Shown here in pieces: positions 3,382 to 51,358 of a stretch of DNA of 64,000 nt; position 1 is the stretch's first letter; each line of letters opens with the position of its first letter. The position numbers and the translations under genes were made by a program. The notes beneath the pieces were generated by a model. The model did not search any database. It saw only the letters and a program-made list of their open reading frames with translations, and was not told the DNA's origin. Source of the DNA: a bacterium (GTDB lineage Bacteria; Bacteroidota; Ignavibacteria; Palsa-1295); the NCBI GenBank assembly GCA_037143335.1, contig JBAWZA010000011.1, positions 13,494 through 77,493 on the forward strand, in the 5' to 3' direction.

Positions 3382-4595
3382 TGATCTTGACTGACATCGA
3401 ACATCGCCTCACATCCCGTATGGATCACTGTGAGGAAGCGGCAACCCTAAAGATCGCAGCGCGCGCGATCGAGCTCCGAAAATCGGGGAAGAAAATTGTA
3501 AGCCTCTCAACTGGCGAACCTGATTTTCCAACCCCTGCGAATATCAAAGAGGCAGCCATACGTGCGATCAATGAAAATTTTACGAAGTACACCGCCGCAG
3601 AGGGTATGCCCGAACTTCGTGCAGTTGTTGCAGAGAAATTTAAGAACGATGATGGCATTGATTCATCTGCCGACCGAGTCCTGATTTCAAGTGGAGGAAA
3701 ACATGCTCTGAGCAATGCGCTCTTTGTGCTCGCTCAGAAAGGCGATGAAATAATTATCCCATCTCCATTTTGGCTCAGTTACTCAGCGATGACAGGACTG
3801 ACGGAAGCTTCGCCAGTACTTATCGAGACGCAACAGGAAGATGATTGGCTTGTTACACCTGATCGCTTAGCAGATGCAATCACTCCACGGTCTCGCGTAT
3901 TACTTTTAAACACACCACACAATCCGACAAGTACAATCTACACCGAAGATCAGCTTCGCGCCCTTGTTCCAATCATCGAAGAGCACGGACTCATCTGCGT
4001 CGTAGATGAGCTCTACGAAAAGTTAACGTATGACGGCAGAAAGCATTTTTCTCTTGGTTCTATTCCTGAGATTGCCGATCAAGTAGTCACCGTAAACGGC
4101 TTGAGCAAAGCATACTCGATGACGGGATGGAGATTGGGATACGCGACCGGTCCGAAGTGGATCATCGAAGCAATGGGTAGATTGCAATCGCAAGCAGTCT
4201 CGCATCCAAGTTCGATTTCGCAGAAAGCTGCTATCGAAGCATTGACTGGTCCACAGGAGAGCATCGAAGTGATGCGTCAAGAATTTCAGAATCGCCGCGA
4301 CCTTGTTGTCTCACTTCTAAAAGAAGTGCCGGAAATTACTTTCAGCTATCCGATGGCAGCATTCTACGTGTTCTTCAATATTAGCGCCTATATCGGCAAG
4401 AAATTGCCAAATGGAAAAATTATTTCCGGTGGGGAAGATATTTGTCAAATGCTTCTTGAAGATCACGGACTTGCACTCGTACCGGGTGGTGCGTTCGGAA
4501 AGAACGATGCTATCCGACTTTCTTTCGCAGCGTCGCAAGCAGACATTCGCAGCGGTATTGAGATATTGAATTCAGGCCTTCGTTCGATCTCTTGA
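3381..4595 (+). CDS. PLP-dependent aminotransferase, class I/II (aspartate/aromatic aminotransferase-like)
   Basis: The track ORF starts at 3339, but the ATG at 3381 (MILTDIEHRL) overlaps the coaD stop as TAATG. Class I aminotransferase motifs are present, including the PLP-lysine region NGLSKAYSMTGWRLGY. Confidence 0.8.
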   Translation: MILTDIEHRLTSRMDHCEEAATLKIAARAIELRKSGKKIVSLSTGEPDFPTPANIKEAAIRAINENFTKYTAAEGMPELRAVVAEKFKNDDGIDSSADRVLISSGGKHALSNALFVLAQKGDEIIIPSPFWLSYSAMTGLTEASPVLIETQQEDDWLVTPDRLADAITPRSRVLLLNTPHNPTSTIYTEDQLRALVPIIEEHGLICVVDELYEKLTYDGRKHFSLGSIPEIADQVVTVNGLSKAYSMTGWRLGYATGPKWIIEAMGRLQSQAVSHPSSISQKAAIEALTGPQESIEVMRQEFQNRRDLVVSLLKEVPEITFSYPMAAFYVFFNISAYIGKKLPNGKIISGGEDICQMLLEDHGLALVPGGAFGKNDAIRLSFAASQADIRSGIEILNSGLRSIS

Positions 4596-5596
4596 TGAAA
4601 AAAGTATATCTCGAAAAGTTGGGTGATGCGTTTTCCGGCGTACGTATTGCTGTGATTGGCGATCTGATGTTGGATAGGTATCTTTTCGGGACGGTCTCTC
4701 GTCTCTCGCCAGAAGCGCCTGTTCCAATTCTGGATATTCATCGTGATGAGTGGCGATTAGGTGGAGCGGCGAATGTCGCAAATAATATTCACACACTCGG
4801 GGCGACAGCGTTGCTTATCGGAGTAGTAGGTGATGATTCCAAAGGCAAACGCGTCCGGCAGATGGTAGAGGAGATCGGGCTTTCGTCCGATGGTATTATT
4901 TCAGATACTGACCGCCCGACCACGATCAAAACGCGTGTGCTTGCATCCAATCAGCAAATGCTCCGTGTAGATCACGAGCAGAAGCATGATCTCTCCGACG
5001 AAATTGAAAATTCAGTCTTTACCTATCTCGAAGCGCAAGCTGATTCGCTTGATGGAATAATTCTTGAAGATTACAATAAAGGTGTTCTCTCGCCGAAATT
5101 GATCGGACGGATTATTTCTTTGGCAAAAGAAAAGTCGTTGCCAGTTTTTGTTGATCCTAAACATCATAATTTTTTCGCGTATCAAAATGCGACCGTCTTC
5201 AAACCCAATCGCAAAGAGATGGAAGATGCACTTGGAGTGAAGTGCGATACCGATAAGAAATTACACAAAGCAGGTTTTGATCTTCTCGCAAAACTTGATG
5301 CCGAAAATATTCTCCTGACTCTCAGCGAAAAGGGCATGTTGCTTTTCGAGCGAGGAGAGAGTGAACCTTTCGCTATTCCAACCACAGCGCAACAAGTTGC
5401 TGACGTCTCAGGCGCCGGCGATACGGTCATAGCCACACTTGCCGTCGCCAAAGCCTGTGGCGCATCTGTCCGCGAAGCCGCTATCATGGCAAACCGTGCC
5501 GCCGGCATTGTGATCGAAGAACTTGGTATCGTCCCGATCTATCGCGAGCAGCTGATTGATGCGCTGGTTGGGGATGTGGCAACCACAAATTCGTAG
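4592..5596 (+). CDS. Ribokinase/PfkB-family carbohydrate kinase, RfaE domain I-like (D-glycero-beta-D-manno-heptose-7-phosphate kinase candidate)
   Basis: 334 aa; ATGA overlap with the upstream stop. The N-terminal VRIAVIGDLMLDRYLFG and the C-terminal DVSGAGDTV anion-hole motif are typical of the PfkB family and of the HldE/RfaE kinase domain. Confidence 0.65.
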   Translation: MMKKVYLEKLGDAFSGVRIAVIGDLMLDRYLFGTVSRLSPEAPVPILDIHRDEWRLGGAANVANNIHTLGATALLIGVVGDDSKGKRVRQMVEEIGLSSDGIISDTDRPTTIKTRVLASNQQMLRVDHEQKHDLSDEIENSVFTYLEAQADSLDGIILEDYNKGVLSPKLIGRIISLAKEKSLPVFVDPKHHNFFAYQNATVFKPNRKEMEDALGVKCDTDKKLHKAGFDLLAKLDAENILLTLSEKGMLLFERGESEPFAIPTTAQQVADVSGAGDTVIATLAVAKACGASVREAAIMANRAAGIVIEELGIVPIYREQLIDALVGDVATTNS

Positions 5597-5608
5597 CTAC
5601 TAGTCTCT

Positions 5609-5694
5609 GTCATTTCGAACGCAGTGAGAAATCGTTAATCGAATATATTTCAGGAATAACGATTTCTCTGTCGTCACGGCGACCTCGAAATGAC
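5609..5694. repeat. Palindromic intergenic repeat, family A copy 1 (GTCATTTCGA...GAGAAATCGTTA-loop-TAACGATTTCTC...TCGAAATGAC)
   Basis: ~86 bp nested inverted repeat between convergent genes (heptose kinase end 5596, nadC end 5716). Copies with >85% identity in the stems occur at 40235-40319 and 42679-42757. Confidence 0.65.
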
Positions 5695-5715
5695 GTAATG
5701 TTGATGAAGCGGTAA

Positions 5716-6579
5716 TTACTCCACCTCCAATGATATATCCAACCCTGTAACAGAGTGTGTTAGTGCGCCGACGGAGATGTAATCGACCCCTGTTTCGGCG
5801 ATGGCGCGGACTGTGGTGAGGTTCACACCACCGGAGGCTTCGGTCTCGAATGCTCTGGCATTTACTTTGACGGCTTCGTGAAGATCTGCGACCAAGAAAT
5901 TATCAAGGAGGACTCGGTTCACGAGTCGGCGTCCGTGTTCAAGAACTATTTGCAATTGATGGGTTGAAGTTACTTCGATCTCAACGGGAATGAGCGGATG
6001 AGTTTTGAAATAGCTTCGTAATTTTTCTAAGACGGCAATAATATCACCACCATTTGCGGCGATGTGATTATCTTTGACAAGAATCATTTCGGCGAGCGAG
6101 TAGCGATGATTCTTTCCGCCTCCAGAGAGCACTGCTTGCCGATCAAACGGACGCAGTAGCGGAGCCGTCTTACGTGTATCTAAAATTTTTGCATTCGTAC
6201 CGCTAACTGCACGAACGTATTTATTCGTCAGTGTGGCAATGCCGCTCATACGTTGCAGAAGATTCAATGCAACTCGCTCGGCGGTGAGAATAATATCAAG
6301 CGGTGCATGAACTTCGGCAATGCGATCTCCATGTTTGACAGCCGAGCCGTCGCGAACGAGATGCTGTGTTATGATTTTACTTTCACGATTTGAACGCGTA
6401 GCATAAATAGAAAATACTTCCGTTGCAATGTCAATGCCGGATAGTATCCCTTGAGCTTTTGCGAGGAAATACGCGCGCCCCATTTCATTGCGGTCAACGG
6501 TAGCAAGTGTTGTGGCATCGCGACCAGTGCTATCCTCGGCAAGAGCTTGAATGATGAGTTGACGCTGAATATCTGTCAT
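5716..6579 (-). CDS. nadC: Nicotinate-nucleotide pyrophosphorylase (quinolinate phosphoribosyltransferase)
   Basis: 287 aa. Conserved QPRTase regions are present (LDTRKTAPLLR, ILVKDNHI, LDNF) and the overall length is right. Confidence 0.88.
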   Translation of the reverse strand: MTDIQRQLIIQALAEDSTGRDATTLATVDRNEMGRAYFLAKAQGILSGIDIATEVFSIYATRSNRESKIITQHLVRDGSAVKHGDRIAEVHAPLDIILTAERVALNLLQRMSGIATLTNKYVRAVSGTNAKILDTRKTAPLLRPFDRQAVLSGGGKNHRYSLAEMILVKDNHIAANGGDIIAVLEKLRSYFKTHPLIPVEIEVTSTHQLQIVLEHGRRLVNRVLLDNFLVADLHEAVKVNARAFETEASGGVNLTTVRAIAETGVDYISVGALTHSVTGLDISLEVE

Positions 6580-6594
6580 GCGAATATTACTAAT

Positions 6595-7362
6595 TTATTT
6601 TCCATCTTTCATCAACTGGGCAATCCCTACGATGAGCAAGTGCGGTGCGATGTGAGTGATAGATTTCGTCCTATTGTCAAAGATATGAGCTAAACCACCT
6701 GTTGCAATGACGATTGGTGCTTCGGCATCGAATGCTTCAGTTTGAATTTTCGCAACAATCCCATCAATCATCGCAACAGCTCCGAAGAGAATTCCAGATT
6801 GAATGCTCTCGACGGTTGATCTTCCGATGAGGTGAGGGGGAAATTGTAGTTCAACCTCGGGCAATAACGATGTCGTACTTGCTAATGCTTTCGCTGTAGA
6901 TGCAATTCCGAGAGTAATCATTCCACCGAGATACTCACCTTTTTTGCTAACGAAATCAATCGTCGTAGCGGTGCCGAAGCTAATGACGATGACGGGTTTT
7001 TTTGCACTCTTGCCCCAACGATGATACGCGGAGTATGCGCCAAGTAATCTATCAATTCCGATTTGCGATGGCTCGTAGTGATTTTTGATAAACGGTGTAT
7101 CGGCATTTCCGACAATTTTCACTTTTGCATTCGGATGAATTTCTTGCACCATCTTCACAAGTACTTGATTTGCCTCGGGCACAACGGATGCGATCCCAAT
7201 CTGTTTTACATCACCCAGCGCTCCGAGCTTTGTGGACAAATCATCACAGCTCTCGCTGAGCAACGACTTTGTTGGATAGTGAAATAACATCTCGAAAGCT
7301 TCAGACTCCTTGAAGAGTCCGAACTTCGTCTGCGTATTTCCAATATCAATTGCAAGTAGCAT
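6595..7362 (-). CDS. coaX: Type III pantothenate kinase
   Basis: Likely start MLLAIDIGNTQTKFG at 7362 (the track ORF extends to 7422). The GNT phosphate-1 motif and GIDR motif of CoaX are present. The start overlaps the birA stop as TAATG. Confidence 0.85.
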   Translation of the reverse strand: MLLAIDIGNTQTKFGLFKESEAFEMLFHYPTKSLLSESCDDLSTKLGALGDVKQIGIASVVPEANQVLVKMVQEIHPNAKVKIVGNADTPFIKNHYEPSQIGIDRLLGAYSAYHRWGKSAKKPVIVISFGTATTIDFVSKKGEYLGGMITLGIASTAKALASTTSLLPEVELQFPPHLIGRSTVESIQSGILFGAVAMIDGIVAKIQTEAFDAEAPIVIATGGLAHIFDNRTKSITHIAPHLLIVGIAQLMKDGK

Positions 7363-8126
7363 TATGGTAGAATAAGTGTAGCATTCTGAAATCGCACGAT
7401 TGCTCCCTCGCTCATCACACATCGAAGCGTACCGTCATCATCAATGCCATCGTAACGTAGGCCGTCGTGTAGCATGGAGTCAGCGTCCCGAACTGCAAAG
7501 GTCCCGATCGTGCGCATCCACTCCAATGCAGGTCTGACAAATTCGATGATGTCTGCGCCAGCCTCGAATAGCTCGAACATTAACGCAAGCGAATAAAGCA
7601 ATTCTTCCTCGATTTGTCGCAGATCGAATTTTCTTTTGGCAACATTCGCGAATGAGGATGCTCTGTCCACTATTTCGGGTGGAAATAATTCTTGATTGAT
7701 ATTTACTCCAATACCAATCACAACGCCTTTCCATGTATCGCCAGACCAAATAGATTCGGTCAGAATCCCAGAAACTTTTTTATTATCAACGAGCACATCA
7801 TTAATCCATTTGAGTTGAACGTTGACTTCTTCATCGTTCAGTACTTCAATGAGCCATGTGTTAACGAATTGATAGACAAGAAATGCCGCAACAAATTGCA
7901 TCTGCTCACGATATTTCTCTGGCACCTTGGTGAGTATCACACTCATCAACAAATTCGCTCTGGGTTCGTCATGCCAAATGCGATCGGCAAATCTTCCTCT
8001 GCCCTCACTTTGGTGCGAGGCAATTACGACATCGCCGTGTTTTGCTTTACCCGAGTGGAGTAGATTCTTCGCATAGGTTTGCGTAGATGGCAGTTCATCA
8101 AATCGAATCGGTTTCCACATCAGCAA
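7362..8126 (-). CDS. birA: Biotin--[acetyl-CoA-carboxylase] ligase (group I, no N-terminal HTH)
   Basis: 254 aa. The GRGRRGR-like motif (QSEGRGRFADRIW) and the C-terminal BirA_C domain are present. Adjacency to coaX resembles the Baf arrangement. Confidence 0.85.
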   Translation of the reverse strand: MLMWKPIRFDELPSTQTYAKNLLHSGKAKHGDVVIASHQSEGRGRFADRIWHDEPRANLLMSVILTKVPEKYREQMQFVAAFLVYQFVNTWLIEVLNDEEVNVQLKWINDVLVDNKKVSGILTESIWSGDTWKGVVIGIGVNINQELFPPEIVDRASSFANVAKRKFDLRQIEEELLYSLALMFELFEAGADIIEFVRPALEWMRTIGTFAVRDADSMLHDGLRYDGIDDDGTLRCVMSEGAIVRFQNATLILP

Positions 8127-9121
8127 AGAATTCGCTTTTTCAAACGCAATAAATAATGAATCACCGGAATCGCAGAATAAAAGGCAAGTAGAGCGACAAG
8201 TGTTCCGGCAATGACATCAATGAAATAATGGTAGCGCAGATAAACGGTCGAAAAAATAAGTCCACTGCCGATAAAGAGCACAACCCAGCGCGTCCGTGCT
8301 CGGAATTTGAAACCAAGAAAAATTGAAAGCAGCGTAATCTCGGTATGACCGCTCGGGAAAACATCACGCGTCACCACCCGTGCGGCTTCGAAGTTCGACA
8401 TACCCGCTTGGATATTCTCGCCCAAGTTTATCAGCCATCGCAGCGGTTCGGTCAGGAGTATGCCGGGCAATTCAGAGGAGATATTCCAAAACGTATGCAG
8501 AGTAAATCGAGGACCGATTCCAGGTAGCGCAAAGTAGCCGAGGTAGGAGAGAAGCAAACCATAGACGATGGTAAATCGCAGTACTTCGAGTTCGTCCGTG
8601 TTATGATCAATCCGATGTTCGCGCTTGCGACGCATAAAAAATTCTACTGCCAAGATCACTGGCAGCAAATAATACATCACGTAACAAATTTGCAAGAACT
8701 CCACAAAAAATGGCATGACTGGAACATGCTGGTAGAGCCACACGGTAGGATTTATTCCGCCGAGAAGAAAATGATCTATGGTAATTAACCATTGATCATA
8801 GTCTCTGCCATGAATAGCGAACGAAAGTTTTTCTACGGTCTTAAAAACAAGAATGACGACAAGCAAGACGTAAAATACGTGAATGGCGCGAATAAACTTC
8901 GAGTCCGATTTTGCGCGAAGGTAGTTGATAATGACCGTAGCACTTAGGAGGATAAACGAATTTATCAAAATGCCTGGCACATCAACGAATGCATGGAAAA
9001 ATGTTGTCAAGATCAGCATTAGGATAATAAAGACGAAGGTCACCATCTCCGTTGGAGAGATGACTCGGATTATTTCCTGAAAAAATCCAGCCGACCGCTT
9101 CTGCTCAGTACGCGTATTCAC
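8120..9121 (-). CDS. Integral membrane PAP2-superfamily phosphatase-like protein
   Basis: 333 aa with multiple hydrophobic helices. The PAP2 signature pieces PSGHT and SRxxxxxHxxxD-like (YLRYHYFIDVIAG) are near the C-terminus. Confidence 0.6.
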   Translation of the reverse strand: MNTRTEQKRSAGFFQEIIRVISPTEMVTFVFIILMLILTTFFHAFVDVPGILINSFILLSATVIINYLRAKSDSKFIRAIHVFYVLLVVILVFKTVEKLSFAIHGRDYDQWLITIDHFLLGGINPTVWLYQHVPVMPFFVEFLQICYVMYYLLPVILAVEFFMRRKREHRIDHNTDELEVLRFTIVYGLLLSYLGYFALPGIGPRFTLHTFWNISSELPGILLTEPLRWLINLGENIQAGMSNFEAARVVTRDVFPSGHTEITLLSIFLGFKFRARTRWVVLFIGSGLIFSTVYLRYHYFIDVIAGTLVALLAFYSAIPVIHYLLRLKKRILC

Positions 9122-9136
9122 AACTCAATAATAATT

Positions 9137-10051
9137 TTATGATTTGACTGCGCGAGTCAACTCTACTTCACTAAAAAAGTGTACAAACTCGCGCACATCC
9201 AATTCCTCCGCGCGGCGTTGCAAGTAATTCATCACAGCCTCCGACTGGCAACTCGCTACATATTCCTCAGCACTCAAGAAAGCCTTCAAGTTATTGCGAA
9301 GCATTTTTCTTCGCATCGCGAACATCGTACGCACAAATCGTTGAAATGTTTTTGAATCAAAATGTTGTGGCGCGGAGGTTTGCGATCTTGTAAAATAGTC
9401 CTGTCCGAAGTCAATACGAACGAGCGCTGAGTCCACATTCGGAACAGGGTTGAACGACCCCGCCTTTACCTTAAAGAGAAACTTCACTTCGCCGAAAAAA
9501 TTTGCAAGCACAGTCGGAATGCCGTACGCTTTGGTACGAGGAACGGCACTCAATCGTTCAGCAACTTCAAATTGAACTAAGAGCAGTGCCGATGAAATTG
9601 CATCCCGATCATCCATCAGCTTGAAAAGTATTGGGCTGGTGATGTAGTAGGGGATATTCCCAACTAACTTCACCTTCGAGCCGATTTCCATTGCAAGCCC
9701 ATGCAGATCGGCACCTAAAATGTCCTGATTTCGAACCTCGAATCTCGCATCATTAATTTCACTTTGCAAAAGGGAGATCGCACGGTTATCAATCTCGAAT
9801 GCGATAAGTTTTGCAAGTGGAAATGTAAGCAACTCTGTAGTCAATAAACCTGTACCCGGTCCAATCTCAACAACGGTTTCACCACTCACGATTCCAGCGG
9901 CGGAGGCAATTCTGCCCCGTGCCTTCTCGTCAACGAGAAAGTTCTGACCGAGTGATTTTTTTGCGTGGAGTGTTGGCAACTGAGAGTATTTGGATTGTTC
10001 AAAATTATTCGACACATCAGAACACGTTTCCCAAGCATTAAGATACCACAA
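9137..10051 (-). CDS. rsmA: 16S rRNA (adenine1518/1519-N6)-dimethyltransferase RsmA/KsgA
   Basis: Motifs KKSLGQNFLVDE, the SAM-binding VVEIGPGTGLLT and the NIPYYITSPI motif are present. The true start may lie downstream of the annotated first ATG. Confidence 0.85.
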   Translation of the reverse strand: MWYLNAWETCSDVSNNFEQSKYSQLPTLHAKKSLGQNFLVDEKARGRIASAAGIVSGETVVEIGPGTGLLTTELLTFPLAKLIAFEIDNRAISLLQSEINDARFEVRNQDILGADLHGLAMEIGSKVKLVGNIPYYITSPILFKLMDDRDAISSALLLVQFEVAERLSAVPRTKAYGIPTVLANFFGEVKFLFKVKAGSFNPVPNVDSALVRIDFGQDYFTRSQTSAPQHFDSKTFQRFVRTMFAMRRKMLRNNLKAFLSAEEYVASCQSEAVMNYLQRRAEELDVREFVHFFSEVELTRAVKS

Positions 10052-10096
10052 ATCATTGTGGGATTTTCATGGTAGTCCGTTGCGTTCTCTAATAGG

Positions 10097-13000
10097 ATGT
10101 CACTGTGTGAAAACTACGTACCAAGAACCATTGGACTACCCATTTGGACAGTTCTCTTGTTGGCTTTTTTTTCTTCGGAAAACTATGCCCAGCAAAAACT
10201 CGCGCACATCCAACCTGATGCTCTCGGTCCGGGGATGACTGTTGCAATGGAGATGCTCGCTCCCGCGGCAGATAGTGGTGCATTCGGTAAGGATGGGATT
10301 TATCTGCCTGAATCGAAAATATATTTAGAAAATCCATTTGATACACTCAGAGTATCATTTGGACCTGTCGTCGTCAGTTGGAAAGGCAGAGTTCTCCAAG
10401 TCCCTGTGATAACAAACCCGTACGCAGTCCCCGGCACGATACGATTCCAAATAATCATAGGAAATCTCAAGAGTAGGTCCACTTCATTTGAGATACGCCA
10501 GCCAATTCCGAAACTCAGTATCTTTGGTGGCGCAATTCTTGGTGACAATTCATTCGCACCATTTAGTTACTCAGGCTCCGGCAGTACGATTGTTGTTGAT
10601 GAAATAGATTTTCAGGGGAATAGTATGTTCGATCGCGGCTTTTATCGCTTTTTTACCGATGACGACGACCCGATTTTCGCTGGCAACCCTCACTACCATC
10701 CTGTTACGATTTTATCGAGAGGAGCAATTAGGTTTCGCAATTCCGAAATTTCTGTTTCTGCAGATTCACTCAACGGCGGTCCAGGCGGTGGTGGTGGTGG
10801 GCACGGTTGGCTCGGAACGGGGGGAGCAGGCTATTCGGGTGGAGGGAGCGACTCGGGTTACTCAACGGATAACATTGGCACAGGTGCTGCTTCTACCATC
10901 TTCACTGGTGGTGCGTCCTCGACAGGAGTGCTTGGGGGAAAGTGTTCGGATTCGATCAGCGATCAGGGCGGCGGCGGCGGCACAGGATGTCCTTATGGAT
11001 CGAGTGGATTGACGAGCAGTGGAAATGACAGTTCGGAATTCGGTGGATTTGGCGGTGCGTCCGCTGGCGGTGAATCGCCTGGAATACCCTACGGTGGCGG
11101 CGGTGGAGGATTTGCAACGAAAGGTGAGAAGGGTGCAGGGTTCGGGAATAATGGAGGCAAAGTCAACGGTGCAAGATTTCTCTTACCCATGCAAGGTGGC
11201 TCTGGAGGCGGATCCGGTAATCATGTATCAGATAAAGACTCAACAGCGGGTTCAGGCGGCGGCGGTGGCGGAGCAATCACAATAATCTCATATGATTCAC
11301 TCTATATACAAGGGAGCATCATCTCCGCAAATGGGAAAAGTGGTACATCGGGAATTTCGTCTGTTGACGCAGGTGGTGGTGGTGGCTCTGGCGGAGGAAT
11401 TTTGCTTTCGGCGAGGAATGGAATCTCAATCAATAACGGAGCGGTCATTGCTACAGGTGGAAATGGCGGCCATGGCGGACTTGGTATCGAACAAAAAAGC
11501 CAAGGGGGGGTGGGGGGTCTCGGATTAGTGAGGATGGATGGCGATGTGAGAATCACGGGAACACTCAACTACTTTACAGGTGTCAGTATTTCGGGTCCGA
11601 CACTTGCTACGAAAGCAAAATTTCAGAACGGCGCGCAAGTTGTCGTCGGCGGTACTGCCGGAGATTCGGCTGCACTTACTGATTCGATTCGAGTTTACTA
11701 TAGGAATCGGCATAGCGGTTGGAGCTTTATTGATACGCTCCGTTTCAAGAGTAATGGCAATTACCGATGGGAAGCCTTGATTCCTGCTGAACATGATTCG
11801 ACGCTTCTTGTAACCGCGATGGCGAAAATTCGCTCGCCGATGCATACATTTGCGAACTACGAACCAGATTATCTCATGTCGCATCTTTCCAGCGGAATCG
11901 TTGCCATGACAGCGTCACCGGATCTTGTACTCTCTCGCGATACTCTTGACTTCGGCTGTTTCAAAGCAGGCGATACATGCGTGAGAGCGAAACTCCACGT
12001 CTCAAATTTAGGAGAAGATAGTTTGCACATCCATTCTATCGTTTCGAATAATACAAGTTTCACCGTAACGCAAACATTGAACTCGTTGGGATATTATCAA
12101 ACCGATAGTATTGAAGTTACCTATTGTCCGAGCAAGATTGGTAAGGATACAGCAGTACTGACGTTCAATTCAAATGACACGGTCAAACATGCAGTTTTGA
12201 TTGGGTGCGGAATTGACAAAGATATTCGTATTATCTTCAAACCCTCGACAATTGATTTCATGAAGGTGCACGTTGGCAAGTGCGACACACTCTCCGTCAC
12301 TGCATATTCAATCGGGAAAGATACAGCACTTGTTTCGAGCAATACACTCTCTCATCCTCCATTCCAAATTATATCACCCACAACTCCCAAACGCCTTGGA
12401 CGGCAAGATTCATTAAAGATTCTCTTCTCCTTCTGTCCGCGTGATACGGGAGTTGCGCAGTCATCATTTATTTTTTCCGAGAAACGGGATTCTGTTTTAT
12501 TAAAGGGTCTCGGTGTCTTGAGTTTGCTCACGGCACAAGAAAATATTTTTGGCGATACACTGTGTTCGCAAGAATGCGATTCCTTTCGGATTAAATTCAT
12601 TTCCAGGGGGAATGAGTCTGTACATATTACCGGGATTTCTGGCGCATCCTTCGGATCGCTCGTTCTCCCGCACACACTTCCTCCGCATGTTGATACAGAG
12701 TATGTGATATACTATTGCGGGTCCCCACAGCATGACTCGCTGTTGGTTGTGCATTACGATAGCGATGCTGATTCATCGAATGAGACCGTGATTCACTACT
12801 TCGTCCAGCATCCGAAATTCATTTCCGATTCCGCACTTCACTTTAGCCAGATATGCGCACCCGCGAGAGATTCACTTCCATTCTCGATAGCAAGGACTGG
12901 AAACGATCCCATTACGATTACCTCGATCAAGTTGAAAAAAGGAATTCCGTTTTCGCTCGTCGGCAATGCATCACCGCAGATTGATTCCGTCCACCTTCAG

Positions 13001-14110
13001 CTTCTGTTCACGCCTCAGAGTAAGGGGGAATATAGTGATACATTAATTGCAACCGTTCATCTAAATGGTTGCGGAGATTCACTTGTCATCATTCCGATCT
13101 CTGCCTCGGCTGGTAGTTCTGATTTTATTTTTTCTAATACTACGCTAAACTTCGGACGCACCGACACAGGCTTGTGTATTTTCGACTCAGTTCTTATCAC
13201 GAATCCATGCTCGAATTCAGAACAACTGCTCATTCAACCATTGCACTCGCCGTTCGCATTAGTCACAAATGAATCGGACTCCATTGATTTTGCTGGTGAC
13301 GAGAATAAAATTCTCCATTTTAGTTATTGTCCAACGAAAGTAAACGTGGATTCTGAAACAGTTCTTTGGACTCTGCCTTCTGGTAAACAAGTTTCAATCG
13401 TGCTTCATGGGGAAGGCAGTGCACATGTTGATTCGTCACTTGTCAGATATAAACTCGAACGCATACTCGGTATCGCAGGGAAAGAATTTTCCTATCCGAT
13501 TGTGATAGATACAATTACTGCTTCGGTGAATTTACGGCATGTAACTGGCGAATTAAATTTTGATCCTCGCGTCGTTCGACCAATGTCAATGAGTGTTTCG
13601 AATTGGATTGTGGATTCAGGGAGCGAAACAACTCCAGGTACATTTAATTTTTCATTGCGAACAACTTCACAGCCTATTATTGGTAGCGTCATTGCCGCTG
13701 TGAATTTTTTGGGACTATATGGGCAACAAGACACAACATCCGTATATTTATCTAAAGTAGTAGATCTCGATTATTCACAGGTTAAAGTGATTAACGGATT
13801 TATCAAAGTTGCAAATTGTGGCACACTTCCTGGGAATATTATCGTAGCAGGAGATTATGTTCTCGGTAATCCAAATCCAAATCCTGCGATTGCGTTGCTC
13901 TCGGTTCCGATCACTCTTGGTGTTGACGGTGCATTGCGCATTCGCATCTATAATTTTGCGGGTGCGAAAGAACATGAGACTTTATTTCAACTCAGTCGTG
14001 GGGAGCATAACGTTTCAGTTGATGTTTCAACGCTTCCTACGGGAATGTATATCCTCAGCACTGATAGTTGGGGATGGCATGATGCGAAAATATTCATGAT
14101 TCAGAAATAA
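10097..14110 (+). CDS. Giant (1337 aa) secreted surface protein with glycine-rich low-complexity region, repeated Ig-like Cys-containing domains and a T9SS C-terminal sorting domain
   Basis: Signal-like N-terminus. The 10780-11530 region encodes long Gly runs. There are repeated ~100 aa modules with conserved Cys (LDFGCFKAGDTC..., IDFMKVHVGKCDTL...). The C-terminus LSVPITLGVDGALRIRIYNFAGAKEH...GMYILSTDSWGWHDAKIFMIQK matches a Por tail pattern. Confidence 0.6.
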   Translation: MSLCENYVPRTIGLPIWTVLLLAFFSSENYAQQKLAHIQPDALGPGMTVAMEMLAPAADSGAFGKDGIYLPESKIYLENPFDTLRVSFGPVVVSWKGRVLQVPVITNPYAVPGTIRFQIIIGNLKSRSTSFEIRQPIPKLSIFGGAILGDNSFAPFSYSGSGSTIVVDEIDFQGNSMFDRGFYRFFTDDDDPIFAGNPHYHPVTILSRGAIRFRNSEISVSADSLNGGPGGGGGGHGWLGTGGAGYSGGGSDSGYSTDNIGTGAASTIFTGGASSTGVLGGKCSDSISDQGGGGGTGCPYGSSGLTSSGNDSSEFGGFGGASAGGESPGIPYGGGGGGFATKGEKGAGFGNNGGKVNGARFLLPMQGGSGGGSGNHVSDKDSTAGSGGGGGGAITIISYDSLYIQGSIISANGKSGTSGISSVDAGGGGGSGGGILLSARNGISINNGAVIATGGNGGHGGLGIEQKSQGGVGGLGLVRMDGDVRITGTLNYFTGVSISGPTLATKAKFQNGAQVVVGGTAGDSAALTDSIRVYYRNRHSGWSFIDTLRFKSNGNYRWEALIPAEHDSTLLVTAMAKIRSPMHTFANYEPDYLMSHLSSGIVAMTASPDLVLSRDTLDFGCFKAGDTCVRAKLHVSNLGEDSLHIHSIVSNNTSFTVTQTLNSLGYYQTDSIEVTYCPSKIGKDTAVLTFNSNDTVKHAVLIGCGIDKDIRIIFKPSTIDFMKVHVGKCDTLSVTAYSIGKDTALVSSNTLSHPPFQIISPTTPKRLGRQDSLKILFSFCPRDTGVAQSSFIFSEKRDSVLLKGLGVLSLLTAQENIFGDTLCSQECDSFRIKFISRGNESVHITGISGASFGSLVLPHTLPPHVDTEYVIYYCGSPQHDSLLVVHYDSDADSSNETVIHYFVQHPKFISDSALHFSQICAPARDSLPFSIARTGNDPITITSIKLKKGIPFSLVGNASPQIDSVHLQLLFTPQSKGEYSDTLIATVHLNGCGDSLVIIPISASAGSSDFIFSNTTLNFGRTDTGLCIFDSVLITNPCSNSEQLLIQPLHSPFALVTNESDSIDFAGDENKILHFSYCPTKVNVDSETVLWTLPSGKQVSIVLHGEGSAHVDSSLVRYKLERILGIAGKEFSYPIVIDTITASVNLRHVTGELNFDPRVVRPMSMSVSNWIVDSGSETTPGTFNFSLRTTSQPIIGSVIAAVNFLGLYGQQDTTSVYLSKVVDLDYSQVKVINGFIKVANCGTLPGNIIVAGDYVLGNPNPNPAIALLSVPITLGVDGALRIRIYNFAGAKEHETLFQLSRGEHNVSVDVSTLPTGMYILSTDSWGWHDAKIFMIQK

Positions 14111-21170: not shown

Positions 21171-24100
21171 TTACCGCGCGATGATAAATTCTCGATCAAT
21201 CGCTTGTTCGTTCAAACGAATAGTGTATGCCCCAGATCCCAGCTTCGATACATCGAGCGTGCAGGAAGCTTTTCCGGCGGTTTGATGATGAGATTGTTGC
21301 AATACTTTTATTCCTCGTGCATCGAAGATCGAAATATTAAATGAGGTCTCGTTAGTTGTAAAGAGAGAAAGCTCAACTTTGTTTCTTGCAGGATTCGGGT
21401 AGATACCGAGCAGTTGTGCCGCAAGATTATTATTCATCGTCTCCAATATCGTTCGTTCGCCGCACTCGAACCGGTAAACAATCGAATCATTCGTTGCTTG
21501 CGATGCAGCTATGCACTTTGCGTAATCGGCATTCGAGCTATTGAACGTGGTGCCTGAGAGTGTGATGCTACTGACACTATCTTTCGTCAAATAAATTTTG
21601 AATCCCAACTCCGCTAGTTTTCCTTTCGGGGCGATGATTGGATTTCCGGTAATGGTTACATCATCACCGTTAATAGTTACTGCGTTCGGACTTGAGACAA
21701 AGAGATAGGACATAAGATCGGAATTCCCAATCTTGAGTTTCGTCTCGACTCGAGTCAGATCATTCGGGAGGCTATCAGCAAGTATCAGGACTCGCGTCGT
21801 ATCACCTGTATGAGGGGTCACCTTCGGGACCTCAAACCGAAGTGGGTATAACTTTCTGTACGAGTACGATCTGGAGAGAGTAATCGGACTCAGTGGAAGA
21901 TCACTTGTACTCTTGATAGAAATAATTTCTGTTGAGGTCGGTTTTTTCCCTGCCGTATCAAGTACTCCGTAGAAATGAATGAGTGTGTCATTCCCAGGCA
22001 ATAGTATAATAGGGAATGTAGCACCAGTGAAAAATCCTGATCCTTGAATATCAGCGCCCGTAAGACTTATCGTATCGCAACCGCTATTAGTAATTCGTAC
22101 AAGTGTATCTACAGTTTGACATAATGTAGTATATCCGAGGTTAGCAGTGGTCATTGACTGCGTTAATATTTTTGAACCGTCAACTACCTTACCAATTATT
22201 GGTATCAATGTATCAACGATATTTCCAAAGCGTGAGTGGTATTGGAGATGTATAATAGAAGAACGCTGTCCTTTTAGTTTCGGCAGAAAGTGAACTCGAA
22301 CCCTCACCGTATCTCCGGGAAGTACGACTTTTTCGGCTGATGATGCGGAGTTAAAATCCAAATCTCCGGCACACCCCAATGATGAAACGAATAGTGAGTC
22401 GCATCCGGAGTTGGTATAAAACATCTCCAACGAGTCGCTTGAGCAAATTGTCAGATCATTAAACTGGAGAGCGTTTTTCGAAAGTGATAACGTCGCGGCT
22501 CCTTCTGAGCTTGATCCATTGAGTAAGAAATTCACAGAATCTTGGATGCCACTTCGCGAAGTTAGAAAGTGGGATGAGCCTGAATAATTTCCTACGCCAT
22601 TCGGGTTGAAGTGGAAGTGAAGCGTGATTGAACTATCAGGTGCTAAAGTAGCTGGATAAGCGATCGGGTCCATGGAAAATAATGAGAGGTTACTTCCCGG
22701 ACCGTTCAAGATACTGAGCGTATCGCATCCACGATTTTTTATTACGATTAACGTATCCATCGGCGGATCACATGTCGTTCGCGAACCGAAATCGTATGAA
22801 GCATTCGTGAGCGGAGGAAGCGCACCACCCTTTGCACTTTCGCCACTCAGAGAAAGTTTAAGATTCTTTGTTACTCCTTCGCGGAGCGTAGAATAATTGA
22901 GAGAGAGCTTGTATTTCCCGATTCGCTTCGGATGGAAGTGATAACGGATTGAAAAGATACTATCAGGAGGAATGACGATTGGATAGATTATTTTTTCAGA
23001 TGTGAAGTTGCTATCAAATCTCGCGGGACCTGATGTGATTAGCAATGTATCACATGATTGATTCTTGAATTGAATAGTTGTATCGCGAAGTGGATCGCAG
23101 ACCGAGACGGTTTGAAAATCGAAGAGCGAATCAGTGATGATCGGACCGGCCACACTCCCATTGCTTACGCCAGCGATAAGCGTATTCAACTTCGTTGGCG
23201 CATACCCATGCCAATCCACGCCAAATGTTGCGTCGCTTGCGTAGCTTCCGATTGCAGGCGGACGGAAATGAAAGTGCAGTATCACCGATGAACCCGGTGG
23301 AATAATTAGCGGATATGCGACTGAGTCGAAACTAAATCCAAGCGCAAGTTTGCCCGGACCAGAAGTGATGCGCATGGTATCGCAACCTAAGTTGCGAACA
23401 CGCATCATTGTATCTCGATTCGGACTACATGACGAAACCGTATCAACATTTAGCAATGTATCAAATGCGACTCCTGCAAAACCTGAACTCGTACCACGGC
23501 CACTCATCTGTATCGGATTCACATACTGCACACCCATCCACTCGGCAGTGATAGGATCATTCGAGCTATATGTGCCCGGTGTTTTTGGTCGGAAGTGATA
23601 TCGAATTTTAATACTGCTATCCGGTGCAAGAATAATCGGCAGTTTGAGAGTATCAACCGAGAATGGATTATCAAGCATCAGCACTTGATTGGTAATCCGC
23701 AACGAATCGCAACCAGTGTTGCGAAGCGTCACCGTTGTATCACGCCCTCCTACGCAGGGAGAGATCGTGTCAAATAAAATAAATGGCGGAATAAAAGTGA
23801 ACTTGACAATTGGCGGAGCAACGGTTTCACTGAGCACAAAAATGGAATCATGCGAAACCCCAACAGCATCGAGCCACGAAAGACGCAACGTATCAAGATA
23901 GGAGCCTACTTTTTTCTTCGAGTCAAAATATATTTTTATCGTATCGTATTTTGTGAGATTGATCGGGTTCGGATAATTTGCAGTCTTCAATGAGAAGAAC
24001 GCTGTGTCCGGTCCACTGAGTATTGCTTTAGTGATGGTGTAGTTTCTGCAATGAATTGCTCCGCTGATAAGACGCATCGAATCTCTATTGCACGAATTTG

Positions 24101-25184
24101 AGGTGCGCGTTAGCTGTGGACTAAAAACCGGAATCTGCGTATTGATCGGCACACCTCCGCTATTATCCGTTCGCCAAAGATCACCATTGACATCAACGCC
24201 GAGTAAGAGTTGCGAAGTAAGTGCAATCAACCATCTCGTATCCGCAAGGTTATTTGGTCCACTAATGGAATCCCATGTCGCACCGTAGTCAGTCGTCCTA
24301 AATACTCCGTTCGATATAGTCTGGAAATATGCGGCATCAGGTGAGATCGTCATTCCTCCATTAAAAAATGAGAGAGGCCTACGAATTTTCGAAGTCCAGG
24401 AACCTCCACGATCGGTAGTGACGAAAACCTCTGACCAATTTTCATTATGACGAAAAAAATCTTCGTTCGAAAGATAGAGTGTGTTGGAGTCACAAACATC
24501 CCACATAAAAGAGTACGAATCCGAAAGTCCGAACAAAGCAGGCTTTTGTTGCCACGATGCTGCCGAATTAGTCGAGACTACGATTCTGCTTCCTTCGAAG
24601 ATCGCCAGAGTGCCGGAGCTTCGGTATGCAATAATATTTGGCACAGCTCCGAGATATGTCAAAGCCCATGTCGCTCCACCATCTTGAGAGAGATATGCAC
24701 CTTGCGATGCAAGGCTCAGAATTCTACTTGCAGAACCAACGAATGCTGTGTATCTGCTACCCGCTCCGCCGGGCGCAACTTGCAAAGTCCAAGTTGCACC
24801 ACGGTTTGTCGTGATGTAAATAAAATTATTGGTGCGGACAAGTCCCGTCTGGTCATCAATAAAATCAATGACTTGAACATTTTCGTTAATGGGTAAACCG
24901 CCGATGGATAGCGTCCACGTTTTCCCGGTATCAAGCGAATACGAAACAGTTTTGAATCCGCCCCAAAGCACACCGTTCTTAAAATGCAACATGCCACCGC
25001 TCGCGGTGAGACCGGGGAATACACCCGGAGAGACCTTTGCCCACTGCGCTACGATGTCCGCTGAAAGACAACAGAGAATGAGCGGGACAAAAATGCTCCG
25101 CAAAAAATAATTTTTCGTACTATTCTGCGTTCTGTGTTTCAACACCATATTGCTCACGAAACCAATGGGGATTCCGTGCGCCAC
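21171..25184 (-). CDS. Giant (1337 aa) secreted protein: N-terminal BNR/sortilin-type (S/T-x-D-x-G-x-T-W) beta-propeller repeats, then repeated Ig-like Cys-containing domains, then a T9SS C-terminal sorting domain
   Basis: At least seven BNR-like motifs (DTGKTWTL, NRGATWTL, QDGGATWAL, DRGGSWTS, DYGATWDS ...). Repeated modules carry RNxGCDTL.IT. The C-terminus LGIYPNPARNKVELSLF...GAYTIRLNEQAIDREFIIAR matches a Por tail pattern. Confidence 0.65.
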   Translation of the reverse strand: MAHGIPIGFVSNMVLKHRTQNSTKNYFLRSIFVPLILCCLSADIVAQWAKVSPGVFPGLTASGGMLHFKNGVLWGGFKTVSYSLDTGKTWTLSIGGLPINENVQVIDFIDDQTGLVRTNNFIYITTNRGATWTLQVAPGGAGSRYTAFVGSASRILSLASQGAYLSQDGGATWALTYLGAVPNIIAYRSSGTLAIFEGSRIVVSTNSAASWQQKPALFGLSDSYSFMWDVCDSNTLYLSNEDFFRHNENWSEVFVTTDRGGSWTSKIRRPLSFFNGGMTISPDAAYFQTISNGVFRTTDYGATWDSISGPNNLADTRWLIALTSQLLLGVDVNGDLWRTDNSGGVPINTQIPVFSPQLTRTSNSCNRDSMRLISGAIHCRNYTITKAILSGPDTAFFSLKTANYPNPINLTKYDTIKIYFDSKKKVGSYLDTLRLSWLDAVGVSHDSIFVLSETVAPPIVKFTFIPPFILFDTISPCVGGRDTTVTLRNTGCDSLRITNQVLMLDNPFSVDTLKLPIILAPDSSIKIRYHFRPKTPGTYSSNDPITAEWMGVQYVNPIQMSGRGTSSGFAGVAFDTLLNVDTVSSCSPNRDTMMRVRNLGCDTMRITSGPGKLALGFSFDSVAYPLIIPPGSSVILHFHFRPPAIGSYASDATFGVDWHGYAPTKLNTLIAGVSNGSVAGPIITDSLFDFQTVSVCDPLRDTTIQFKNQSCDTLLITSGPARFDSNFTSEKIIYPIVIPPDSIFSIRYHFHPKRIGKYKLSLNYSTLREGVTKNLKLSLSGESAKGGALPPLTNASYDFGSRTTCDPPMDTLIVIKNRGCDTLSILNGPGSNLSLFSMDPIAYPATLAPDSSITLHFHFNPNGVGNYSGSSHFLTSRSGIQDSVNFLLNGSSSEGAATLSLSKNALQFNDLTICSSDSLEMFYTNSGCDSLFVSSLGCAGDLDFNSASSAEKVVLPGDTVRVRVHFLPKLKGQRSSIIHLQYHSRFGNIVDTLIPIIGKVVDGSKILTQSMTTANLGYTTLCQTVDTLVRITNSGCDTISLTGADIQGSGFFTGATFPIILLPGNDTLIHFYGVLDTAGKKPTSTEIISIKSTSDLPLSPITLSRSYSYRKLYPLRFEVPKVTPHTGDTTRVLILADSLPNDLTRVETKLKIGNSDLMSYLFVSSPNAVTINGDDVTITGNPIIAPKGKLAELGFKIYLTKDSVSSITLSGTTFNSSNADYAKCIAASQATNDSIVYRFECGERTILETMNNNLAAQLLGIYPNPARNKVELSLFTTNETSFNISIFDARGIKVLQQSHHQTAGKASCTLDVSKLGSGAYTIRLNEQAIDREFIIAR

Positions 25185-25245
25185 AACACAGGTATGGAAG
25201 GATGTTTTTGAGGGAAAAGTTCGCTAGTGGAGTGGCAATCAAACT

Positions 25246-25300
25246 GTCATTCCCTCGGGAGGCGGGAATCCAGGTTCATGTGATTTCGCTGGATTCTGGG
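25246..25300. repeat. Palindromic intergenic repeat, family B (GTCATTCCC-N-CGGGAATCCAGG ... CTGGATTC)
   Basis: Nested inverted repeats read directly from the sequence. An inverted-orientation copy of the 30 bp core lies at 51252-51284. Confidence 0.5.
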
Positions 25301-25437
25301 TCGGTAGAGAGAGATCATCCCGAATTATGGACTCCAAATCTAGCTTCCTGCGTTATGAGATACAACTTACGAGGGATATTTTTTCGTAAGTTTGCATTCT
25401 CGGATTCAACACAGATTCTTACCTAAACTTAGAACGT

Positions 25438-27814: not shown

Positions 27815-29043
27815 TTAGTTTATTTTCAAAATGATTTTCGTTATGATCTTGCCCGAATAATTAATCTTAATAAAATACGCACCTGCTGGGTAGTCGGAGA
27901 GATCAAGATGATATGAGCTTGAGAATTTTGGTGTGTATCTCGCCGCCACCACTCCTGCGGAATTAGAAATGACAAGGTCACTAATTTCTGCGCCACTCGT
28001 TTGAATGGTCGTTACTCCAGTGGTAGGATTTGGAAAAAGTAAAATTGCATCAACTGTAGGTTCTGATTCTACCTTGCTCAAACTCGGTGTAAAGATTTGG
28101 TTGGCATTCATCGGCTCGATTCCGTCAGTGCCGCCAAGTACATAAATTTTGCCGTTGACGGATGCAGAGGTGAGGGCATAACGTGTAGTCAATGTATCTT
28201 TTGTGGTTACGGAATCCCATGAGTTTGTGGCTGGGTCAAAAACATCAACCGTATTCACCGGCGTACCAAATACTGAACCACCAAAGACATAAATCTTTCC
28301 ATTTGCGTATGAGCATGTCAATTCATCACGAGCAGTAAATGAGCCACTCACTGGTGGTGATGACCATGTATTGCTCGAAGCATCAAAAATATAAACAGAA
28401 TCTAAATCGGTGAATCCGTCATATCCGCCGAAGACATAAATTTTATTCCCAATCGCGCACGATGTCATCTTTATCATCGCAGGAAACCGACCTGCTGTAG
28501 TTGGAGTACTCCATTTATCAGCGATAGGATCATAGACTTCAAGCGTATTGAGAATGCCAACCCCAACACCATTGGCTCCCCCAATTGCATAAATTTTATC
28601 ACCAATGACGCTCACAGTTAATGCTGATCGCGGTGTCGGCATGTTCGATTTTGCATTTGTCCACGAGCGATTGGCGGGATCATATATTTGTACGAGTGAA
28701 AGGTCGCCACCATTTGCTCCGCCGATGACATAGATTTTATCCTTTACCGCCGCGGTTGCCAAATACTGTCGAGGTTTGAATGTTCCAGTTGTGGTCGGGG
28801 TCTCCCAATGATTTGCAATTGGGTCATATACTTCAAGTCGGTTGCTCTGATACGTATGGCCGTCCACTTTGCCGTCTTCATTGCCACCGAATACATATAT
28901 TTTGCCACCTACGACGGAGGAGGAGAGTGCATATCTCCGCGTAAATCCAGTCGTATCGCCTTTTGTCCATATTCCGAAATGCGATTGTGAAAAGACTAAC
29001 GCCGGTAGTGCGATGAGAACAAGAGCAATGAGAAATTTCATAA
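27815..29043 (-). CDS. Kelch-repeat beta-propeller secreted protein with T9SS C-terminal sorting domain
   Basis: Likely start MKFLIALVLIALPALVFSQ at 29043 (the track ORF extends to 29203). Repeated 'GGxxxx...Y(V/I)FGG...W' Kelch blades are present. The C-terminus ...VESEPTVDAILLFPNPTTGV...YFIKINYSGKIITKIILKIN matches a Por tail pattern. Confidence 0.65.
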
Positions 29044-29078
29044 GAGTATCTGATAATGAGATAGGTACTTTAGTATAA

Positions 29079-40198: not shown

Positions 40199-40234
40199 TG
40201 AATTGATCGGATTAATTGGCTATTTCTCCCCCTT

Positions 40235-40319
40235 GTCATTTCGACCGAAGGGAGAAATCGTTAAGCCTGAGAAGATCGGAGCAACGATTTCTCGGTCGCT
40301 GAGGCGACCTCGAAACGAT
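40235..40319. repeat. Palindromic intergenic repeat, family A copy 2
   Basis: TGTCATTTCGACCGAAGGGAGAAATCGTTAAGCC...GCAACGATTTCTCGGTCGCTGAGGCGACCTCGAAACGA. It lies between convergent gene ends (40198 / 40347). Confidence 0.65.
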
Positions 40320-40346
40320 AAGATGATATTATTCAAACCCTCTCTA

Positions 40347-42678: not shown

Positions 42679-42757
42679 GGTCATTCCGAAGGTAGGGAGA
42701 AATCGTTAAGCCTCAATCTTTCAGGCATAACGATTTCTCACATTCGCTCGAAATGAC
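42679..42757. repeat. Palindromic intergenic repeat, family A copy 3 (shorter right arm), flanked by ATACTGG direct repeats
   Basis: GGTCATTCCGAAGGTAGGGAGAAATCGTTAAGCC...GCATAACGATTTCTCACATTCGCTCGAAATGAC. The flanks are catACTGG|element|ttatACTGG. Confidence 0.6.
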
Positions 42758-42857
42758 TTATACTGGAATGATTGCGTAATGCCCGTACAAGAATCTCTCT
42801 CGCACCAAACAATCCCCATAGTTGTTTTCTCGTCCCAAAATACACTTTTTTTGATCC

Positions 42858-51251: not shown

Positions 51252-51284
51252 GGGGGAATGGATTCCCGCCTTCGCGGGAATGAC
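51252..51284. repeat. Family B palindromic repeat core, inverted orientation
   Basis: GGGAATGGATTCCCGCCTTCGCGGGAATGAC is the reverse complement of the 25246-25275 core, with 3-4 mismatches. Confidence 0.5.
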
Positions 51285-51296
51285 AGCTTTATCAGT

Positions 51297-51327
51297 GGGA
51301 CGGTCTCTTAGACCGTCCCGTATTTTT
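51297..51327 (+). terminator. Rho-independent terminator-like hairpin GGGACGGTC-TCTTA-GACCGTCCC followed by GTATTTTT; family C repeat copy 2
   Basis: 9 bp GC-rich stem plus T5, downstream of the DUF58 gene. The sequence is near-identical to the 2825-2846 hairpin. Confidence 0.6.
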
Positions 51328-51358
51328 GACGGGACGGTTGCCCACCTGAGATTGGGAT

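Follow-up and report, generated by a model that had tools for sequence, protein, structure and literature searches.

Intergenic repeats in a Kapabacteria-like bacterial contig are inverted dimers of CGTC-tagged REP units

We analyzed a 64,000-nt stretch of bacterial DNA, hereafter the window (record positions 11963-75962 of contig NODE_93, ENA ERZ4222710, 99,881 bp), which carries three copies of an intergenic palindromic repeat of about 85 bp. Each repeat is a head-to-head (HH, tags outside) dimer of two CGTC-tagged repetitive extragenic palindromic (REP) units, inverted around a spacer with complementary ends. The elements are very probably a local variant of the CGTC-REP superfamily with an ATTTC/GAAAT stem, and probably behave as non-coding, non-autonomous DNA, each dimer being gained or lost as a whole. 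The host is a Kapabacteria-like (FCB group) metagenome-assembled genome (MAG); its nadC protein is 100% identical to that of an NCBI MAG, the nearest relatives of the protein, with 63-76% identity, are labelled Kapabacteria, Ignavibacteriota or Bacteroidota, and many window proteins bear a type IX secretion system (T9SS) sorting domain. Comparison loci fetched during the work are denoted by L numbers (L010, L018, L142, L145 etc.).

The three copies reported in a preliminary description of the window, made from the sequence alone, were confirmed at 5609-5694, 40235-40319 and 42680-42757, and inclusion of the tag base extends each of them slightly (Table 1). All three have identical orientation. 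The 12-mer GAGAAATCGTTA from the inner arm, searched with at most one mismatch, returned 7 matches in the window against 0.56 expected, a number reached in 0/100 shuffles; six of the seven correspond to the six inner arms of the three copies, while the seventh (39534-39545) is unrelated. Alignment of the copies showed a mean column identity of 84%, with both arm pairs conserved and a centre of 18-19 nt that varies. A covariance model built from the three copies recovered each of them with the scores given in Table 1, and its next best match in the window scored 13.6 bits with an E value of about 1, thus indicating that the window contains exactly three copies. Two details had escaped the preliminary description, namely an additional small hairpin (GTCG..CGAC) preceding the 3' outer arm in copies 1 and 2, which is absent from copy 3, and the degeneration of the 3' outer arm in copy 2 (TCGAAACGAT). 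The gene map bore out the claim that two copies lie between convergent gene ends and one between divergent genes. Copy 1 is located between the convergent PfkB and nadC genes, beginning 12 nt past the stop codon of PfkB and ending 21 nt from that of nadC, copy 2 between two convergent genes for T9SS-tail proteins, and copy 3 between an E1 dehydrogenase gene and a hypothetical gene that diverges from it.

The internal organization of the element was established by covariation analysis, which had been proposed as a check on the copies and was run on 129 related elements (described below). The parts of each unit follow the order unpaired (C/T)GTC tag, ATTNC, GA, variable loop (sometimes a hairpin), GA, GN'AAT and 3-nt tail. 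The free base N of the outer ATTNC is Watson-Crick complementary to N' of the GN'AAT in the same half in 124/129 left halves and 122/129 right halves, i.e., in about 95% of cases, and all four pair types occur at this position; the corresponding values for pairing of the free bases across halves are 107/129 and 106/129. The 23 heterodimers provide 46 outer bases, of which 39 agree with their own half and 6 with the opposite half (Fisher p = 2.6e-12). This within-half covariation indicates that the evolving module is one half of the element, from tag to tail, and that the element consists of two such modules inverted around a spacer. When the two halves share one type, as they do in the window, the nested outer and inner stems of the preliminary description form a valid alternative fold, but covariation ties each outer arm to the inner arm of its own half; the nested fold, though thermodynamically dominant, is not the relationship kept by evolution. 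The four GAAAT/ATTTC pentamers were also considered as sites for a single protein binding double-stranded DNA, a possibility that we rejected as their spacing is variable (loops of 3-45 nt) and hairpin pairing accounts for the covariation more simply.

The six units of the three window copies carry the tags TGTC and CGTC (copy 1), TGTC and a degenerate TATC (copy 2), and GGTC and AGTC (copy 3). Logos of the unit flanks across the family showed a pyrimidine at position -1 (C in 49%, T in 44%) and no conserved base farther out than position -2, thus defining the tag as CGTC/TGTC. In all six units the first stem pairs are A-T, T-A and T-A and the 3-nt tail is CGT. The stems comprise 5 Watson-Crick pairs (ATTTC/GAAAT), a tandem G.A and 1-2 more pairs, corresponding to 8-9 positions when the non-complementary residues are counted. 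The loops span 3-7 nt in the left units, and 14-16 nt in the right units of copies 1 and 2, where they fold into hairpins of their own.

Table 1. Positions of the REP-type features in the window, tag bases included
Feature	Positions	Strand	Details
Copy 1, HH dimer (tags outside) of two CGTC-type REP units	5608..5695	+	105.7 bits; tags TGTC left, CGTC right (minus-strand reading)
Copy 1, left REP unit	5608..5635	+	TGTC, ATTTC, GA, ACGCAGT, GA, GAAAT, CGT; stem of 5 bp plus tandem G.A pair
Copy 1, spacer	5636..5658	.	complementary ends, variable core
Copy 1, right REP unit	5659..5695	-	CGTC, ATTTC, GA, G(GTCG CCGTGA CGAC)A, GA, GAAAT, CGT; loop is its own hairpin; -4.1 kcal/mol as DNA
Copy 2, HH dimer	40234..40320	+	94.9 bits; left unit 40234-40261; right unit 40284-40320 (minus), tag and arm degenerate
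Copy 3, HH dimer	42679..42758	+	86.3 bits; left unit 42679-42706, with C.A mismatch (ATTCC vs GAAAT)
Copy 3, right unit	42730-42758	-	extra loop hairpin absent
Single CGTC REP unit, ATTCC/GGAAT type	25244..25272	+	CCA tail; divergent intergenic region
Single CGTC-1-like REP unit	51259..51285	-	TGTC-ATTCCCGC-GAAG-GCGGGAAT-CCA; 8-bp stem, 4-nt loop, CCA tail; between convergent genes

This architecture identifies the elements as members of the CGTC-tagged REP superfamily, which was described in many bacteria by Di Nocera, De Gregorio and Rocco (BMC Genomics 2013, PMC3733652). In that survey, the CGTC tag is reported to be unpaired and often replaced by TGTC or CCTC, the stems to measure 8-9 bp and to start nearly always with complementary A-T residues (A-T, T-A), the loops to span 4-5 nt with exceptions (longer in some families), and the 3-nt tail to be mostly CCA. 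Dimers of the tags-outside HH type predominate, with spacers of 20-100 bp, some of which have complementary ends or stem-loops of their own, and the repeats are mostly extragenic, lying between convergent or unidirectional open reading frames (ORFs) and near ORF 3' ends. The reported hosts comprise Proteobacteria (mainly alpha), Chlorobi, Bacteroidetes, Spirochaetes and Thermotogae; Neisseria dRS3 and Rickettsia RPE-4 and RPE-6 are listed as members, and Novosphingobium aromaticivorans appears among the hosts, in agreement with the independent matching of the genus Novosphingobium in our BLAST searches. The window elements share with the superfamily the (C/T)GTC tag, the A-T/T-A start of the stem, a 3-nt tail, the HH dimers and the spacer with complementary ends, as well as the extragenic placement mostly after ORFs, the occurrence in Chlorobi/Bacteroidetes and the lack of a transposase nearby. 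The initial guess of a REP- or BIME-like repeat (BIME, bacterial interspersed mosaic element) was thus right in kind, the element being an inverted pair of REP-type units assembled with the same mosaic logic as BIMEs and REPINs (REP doublets forming hairpins). Literature matches to the raw sequence strings returned primer coincidences only.

Copies of the repeat were also found beyond the window. A fourth copy (75 bits; L142 1390-1476) was located elsewhere on this contig, about 6.3 kb before the window begins; two same-strand genes flank it, and a phage portal gene is close by. Related elements are also present in relatives, phage contigs and cultured Alphaproteobacteria, so that the repeat is not confined to the window; such confinement would have counted against the preliminary proposal. 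All four contig copies are HH dimers with spacers of 22-25 nt and complementary ends. The portal gene and a helix-turn-helix (HTH) regulator adjoin the fourth copy (L142 1-1024, contig record about 4223-5246), which suggests a prophage remnant just outside the window.

The wider family was reached through the relative L010, whose nadC protein is 73% identical and which gave a weak match to the covariance model; the part in common comprised the outer arms GTCATTYYGA...TCGRAATGAC only, with a different interior, and a second L010 element of 149 bp carries identical outer arms. Searching viral contigs with the outer arms alone returned 13 loci from hosts of 41 to 72% GC, nearly all of which follow the plan GTCATTTCGA(S)C, variable stretch, GAGAAATC, stem and loop, GATTTCTC, variable stretch, G(S)TCGAAATGAC. 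When one base was left free in each arm (GTCATTNCGA...TCGNAATGAC), at least 120 viral (IMG/VR) loci were recovered. Among the matches listed, 105 of 163 elements have G/C at the free positions (GTCATTGCGAG..GAAGCAATCC..GGATTGCTTC..CTCGCAATGAC), the remaining ones being C/G, T/A and rare A/T versions, and the hosts carrying superfamily elements range from 34 to 72% GC. Elements with the ATTTC/GAAAT stem occur also in the relatives L010 and L145 and in 13 viral contigs. In cultured bacteria, BLAST searches located the G/C version in Novosphingobium resinovorum (at least 40 places on one replicon), N. aromaticivorans, Methylosinus trichosporium, Methylobacterium and the cyanobacterium Aulosira; a window copy searched against PLSDB gave a chance Haloarcula match only, and the phage variant had no BLAST match in INPHARED. 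Four PLSDB entries, NZ_CP119142.1 and NZ_CP119140.1 (N. gonorrhoeae, about 2.17 Mb), CP125156.1 and NZ_CP141089.1, are labelled as plasmids and are chromosome-sized, a data-quality caveat for plasmid-based counts.

Several arrangements of the units were observed among these loci. G/C-type CGTC units (ATTGC/GCAAT) with long hairpin loops are present in the relatives at L010 6634-6688 and L145 34-73, indicating that several REP types coexist in the lineage of the MAG. Parts of the element are reiterated at L019 4096-4167, which has three additional repeats of the 3' arm spaced at a 24-nt period, and at L097 8930-9091, where a 16-nt motif occurs five times inside the spacer, and a solo extra 5' arm lies 25-45 nt upstream in several loci (left ends of L014, L021, L038, L080, L095, L098 and L138). 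Such tandem reiterations may be slippage products or footprints of repeated insertion. The IMG/VR contig 3300029288_000501 (L018), a Mu-like phage with MuB-like, Gam-like and endolysin genes, contains seven CGTC-REP heterodimers in 7 kb (4246-11016), all co-oriented with the genes and each composed of an ATTTC-type left half and an ATTCC-type right half; in the three gaps where the ORF map shows the next start, 18-19 nt separate the end of the element from it.

This gene-element-gene-element pattern in one orientation, together with the nested conserved motif pairs around a centre of variable sequence and length and the bracketing of two genes by copies 2 and 3, might recall attC or another site-specific recombination site marking gene cassettes. 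Sites of the attC type carry the R''/R' consensus RYYYAAC/GTTRRRY, pair R''/R' and L''/L' across their two halves and lie in cassette arrays next to intI. This consensus is absent from the elements, pairing occurs within halves and not across them, L018 is a Mu-like phage backbone and not a cassette array, and no integrase was seen next to any copy, all of which makes a cassette recombination site extremely improbable.

Comparison of related junctions showed that the dimer is present or absent as a whole. The nadC/PfkB junction consists of a 119-nt gap holding copy 1 in the window and of a 1-nt gap in the relative L145. Likewise, related phage contigs carry either a dimer or a contiguous, shorter junction (L123 vs L105; L049, L052 and L066 vs L094 and L075), and in these best-aligned pairs the dimer is located between the upstream stop codon and the next ribosome-binding site; the pair L120/L094 also differs by presence and absence, with flanks that align less well. 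Target-site duplications were found neither at the window copies nor, in any consistent form, at the 306 unit flanks or in the filled/empty pairs. The element has also been kept at one site in L010 and L145 (neighbouring protein 83% identical) and at another in L023 and L024 (84% and 74%), and at both shared sites the arms are conserved while the loops and spacers have diverged.

These data bear on the earlier suggestion of a Correia-like miniature inverted-repeat transposable element (MITE) mobilized in trans, that is, a deletion derivative of an insertion sequence (IS) whose DDE transposase would bind terminal inverted repeats of 10-12 bp. The ends are indeed inverted repeats (GTCATTTCGA/TCGAAATGAC), the same ends are found with different interiors, and presence/absence differences exist. 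However, the lack of a target-site duplication at any window copy or filled/empty pair is joined by the lack of a parent IS: within 1.3 Mb of fetched loci, a collection that is not exhaustive, we observed no gene-containing element bounded by these ends, and the one pair of ends lying 1.8 kb apart encloses a phage gene between two separate elements. Moreover, the within-half covariation and the loop hairpins point to hairpin units, which a protein binding double-stranded ends would not need, and the 2013 survey reported no transposase association (PMC3733652). A classical MITE is thus very unlikely.

A further possibility is that the main selected role of the element is exerted at the RNA level, as a 3' hairpin that ends or pauses transcription of both converging genes or protects the upstream mRNA. 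In E. coli, REP sequences do act as 3' mRNA hairpins in termination or pausing or in protection from exonucleases. Three of the four contig copies lie downstream of convergent or unidirectional ORFs, copy 1 being within 12-21 nt of both stop codons, and the predicted folds are very stable on both strands. The seven co-oriented L018 copies, with 18-19 nt to the next start in three gaps, and the retention of the arms at orthologous sites while the loops drift, are in line with such a role, as is the same placement bias reported for CGTC REPs (PMC3733652). Nevertheless, the bidirectional terminator proposed in the preliminary description did not hold up, as no T-run on either strand, and hence no U-tract, and no terminator-like call were found at any copy. 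Divergent genes flank copy 3 and both L010 copies, relatives lack the element at the same junction, and an RNA role leaves unexplained why the same 5-nt stem core and tag recur across hosts of 34-72% GC. We regard this as a rather unlikely explanation of the main role; as a secondary effect, a 3' hairpin role in mRNA is possible and compatible with the CGTC-REP dimers that we favour.

The strong predicted folds, the multi-copy occurrence, the conservation across taxa and the frequency in phage contigs, as for some ribozymes, could also fit a structured small RNA gene or a self-cleaving ribozyme. No Rfam match was obtained at gathering thresholds for the window and 10 related loci, and only noise appeared at E<=10. 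In addition, the conserved bases are the paired ones, whereas loops and junctions vary freely, the two-fold symmetry distinguishes neither strand, and no promoter-like site was found upstream of copies 1 and 2. The small RNA suggested at first is thus not supported, and a reading of this kind appears highly improbable.

As for the way of spreading, we propose that the CGTC-REP dimers would be gained and lost as whole pieces of non-coding, non-autonomous DNA in short intergenic gaps, with no target duplication. More tentatively, a single-strand hairpin intermediate might be handled in trans by an enzyme, since target duplication is lacking, the units form hairpins and GCGAAGC-type loops are frequent in the G/C variant. 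The commonest unit loop in the G/C-type elements (L025-L140) contains GCGAAGC, with the complement GCTTCGC in the partner unit. The GCGAAGC heptamer forms an unusually stable DNA mini-hairpin, and these loops may hint at a single-stranded DNA stage. Once placed downstream of genes, the element would probably be co-transcribed, and its stable fold could buffer mRNA 3' ends as a side effect.

The obvious candidate for the mobilizing enzyme would be a HUH tyrosine transposase similar to the REP-associated tyrosine transposases (RAYTs). A later preprint (Bertels and Rainey, bioRxiv 10.1101/2021.07.10.451892) regards the Neisseria dRS3-type repeat as the REPIN that belongs to a Group 2 RAYT. With E. 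coli RayT as the query, tblastn against the plasmid collection detected no RAYT on the repeat-carrying Novosphingobium, Methylosinus and Methylobacterium replicons. We consider the action of a RAYT in trans on CGTC REPs plausible and unproven, with the balance leaning somewhat against it. An association with small GIY-YIG nuclease genes was considered and discarded, as a motif scan of the window and L001-L024 revealed none near the elements.

The phage contigs raise a broader possibility, namely that CGTC-REP dimers are an active mobile element with no known transposase that colonizes phage genomes and chromosomes. In these contigs the dimers are placed cleanly in the few bases that separate a stop codon from the ribosome-binding site downstream of it, with no target duplication. 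Alternatively, phages may keep the dimers as intercistronic RNA elements. Phages are not mentioned in the 2013 survey (PMC3733652). We regard active mobility of this kind as rather doubtful; if true, the mover would be an enzyme or process other than a DDE transposase or a RAYT with its own REPs on either side. The clean filled/empty phage pairs would offer a direct handle on insertion chemistry and make the question of spreading somewhat more tractable.

A number of observations weigh against the assignment of the window elements to mobile CGTC-REP dimers. With respect to mechanism, neither a transposase nor a RAYT (Y1 transposase) was found in the approximately 81 kb of the contig examined (the window and 17 kb beyond), the 2013 survey found no transposase associated with CGTC REPs (PMC3733652), and in N. 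gonorrhoeae the immediate neighbours of the RAYT gene are GTAG REPs, a CGTC dimer lying about 140 nt upstream. Since every filled/empty comparison is between diverged relatives (68-85% protein identity), gain cannot be separated from loss. With respect to sequence, and as far as the published descriptions extend (PMC3733652), the window stem core is an ATTTC/GAAAT helix of 5 bp followed by G.A pairs instead of a fully paired stem of 8-9 bp, and the tail is CGT instead of the usual CCA; the variant, compared with four CGTC families by their textual description only, may be undescribed. The exact inner palindrome GAGAAATCGTT..AACGATTTCTC matched only unrelated chance hairpins in 185,579 reference genomes, JGI metagenomes and viral contigs, indicating that the window sequence variant is rare or poorly sampled; the pattern was also too narrow because it included the lineage-specific tail. 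Finally, the predicted folding energies of most single units reach only -0.9 to -4 kcal/mol (DNA parameters); those of the whole copies amount to -33 to -42 kcal/mol (RNA parameters), and both strands fold far better than shuffled controls (z-scores between -4.5 and -7.9). By these values the nested long hairpin is far more stable, and it may be the fold actually formed in the window homodimers.

Besides the dimers, the window contains two single CGTC REP units of the classical, dRS3-like kind with CCA tails (Table 1), which further tie it to the published family. The unit at 25244 is followed by CCAG..CTGG and a degenerate second palindrome, and the whole region 25244-25335 is possibly a decayed dimer whose partner has degenerated. 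The unit at 51259 showed a predicted folding energy of -8.9 kcal/mol (z -4.3). It is followed by a separate GC-rich hairpin (GGGACGGTC..GACCGTCCC) with a T-run at 51296-51340, which looks like a true intrinsic terminator between convergent genes.

Other repeats of the window are coding. Direct Kelch repeats with a period of about 147 nt occur at 27815-29203, 35445-36719, 40347-41654 and 54910-56271 and are not non-coding repeats; the 40347-41654 protein matched Kelch and T9SS-tail families, and the other three were assigned from shared DNA repeat families. Two ORFs of equal length (1337 aa), at 10097-14110 (+) and 21171-25184 (-), lie about 7 kb apart in opposite orientation and encode Ig-like/ASH-domain proteins with T9SS sorting tails.

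The element is therefore a known kind of repeat, and what is new here is the stem variant (ATTTC/GAAAT) and the host lineage, by which the CGTC-REP superfamily is extended to a Kapabacteria-like lineage. For annotation purposes, the copies should be masked as REP-type repeats and not called as small ORFs, small RNAs or terminators; the CGTC-REP family accounts for many spurious short ORFs in other genomes. More modest additions are the quantitative covariation backing the REP unit as an evolving module, and the finding that superfamily elements are frequent in phage and prophage contigs, where their presence or absence clearly varies.

Comparison with known systems places the window elements as follows. 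The Correia element is likewise a small intergenic palindromic repeat (about 100-150 bp) able to form hairpins, but its 26-bp terminal repeats (TATAGTGGATTAACAAAAATCAGGACAA) are absent here. Correia elements also make a TA target duplication, which the window element lacks. Like the E. coli BIME, the window element combines inverted palindromic units about a central motif into a mosaic and is extragenic, often between convergent genes, although sequence and tag are unrelated and no central IHF-like site was seen in our elements. In BIME-1 an IHF site occupies the centre. The REPIN/RAYT system, based on the GTAG-tagged REPs of Pseudomonas and E. coli, shares two short imperfect palindromes in inverted arrangement that are able to form one long hairpin, the non-autonomous nature, the lack of target duplication and the long persistence at fixed sites; in contrast, the window tag is (C/T)GTC and not GTAG, and no RAYT gene flanked by CGTC units is known or was seen here. 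Within the CGTC superfamily itself, the window elements differ further in that one unit per dimer (copies 1 and 2) has a hairpin loop of 14-16 nt instead of 4-5 nt, and in their host, a Kapabacteria-like MAG. Neisseria dRS3 (CGTC-1) serves in Neisseria as a phage integration target and takes part in the arrays known as NIMEs (Neisseria intergenic mosaic elements). The three window copies differ from dRS3 in using ATTTC/GAAAT and another tail, but the layout CGTC, ATTCC..GGAAT, CCA is held in common, and the single window unit at 51259-51285 (TGTCATTCCCGCGAAGGCGGGAATCCA) is one loop base off the quoted Neisseria seed ATTCCCGCGCAGGCGGGAATC.

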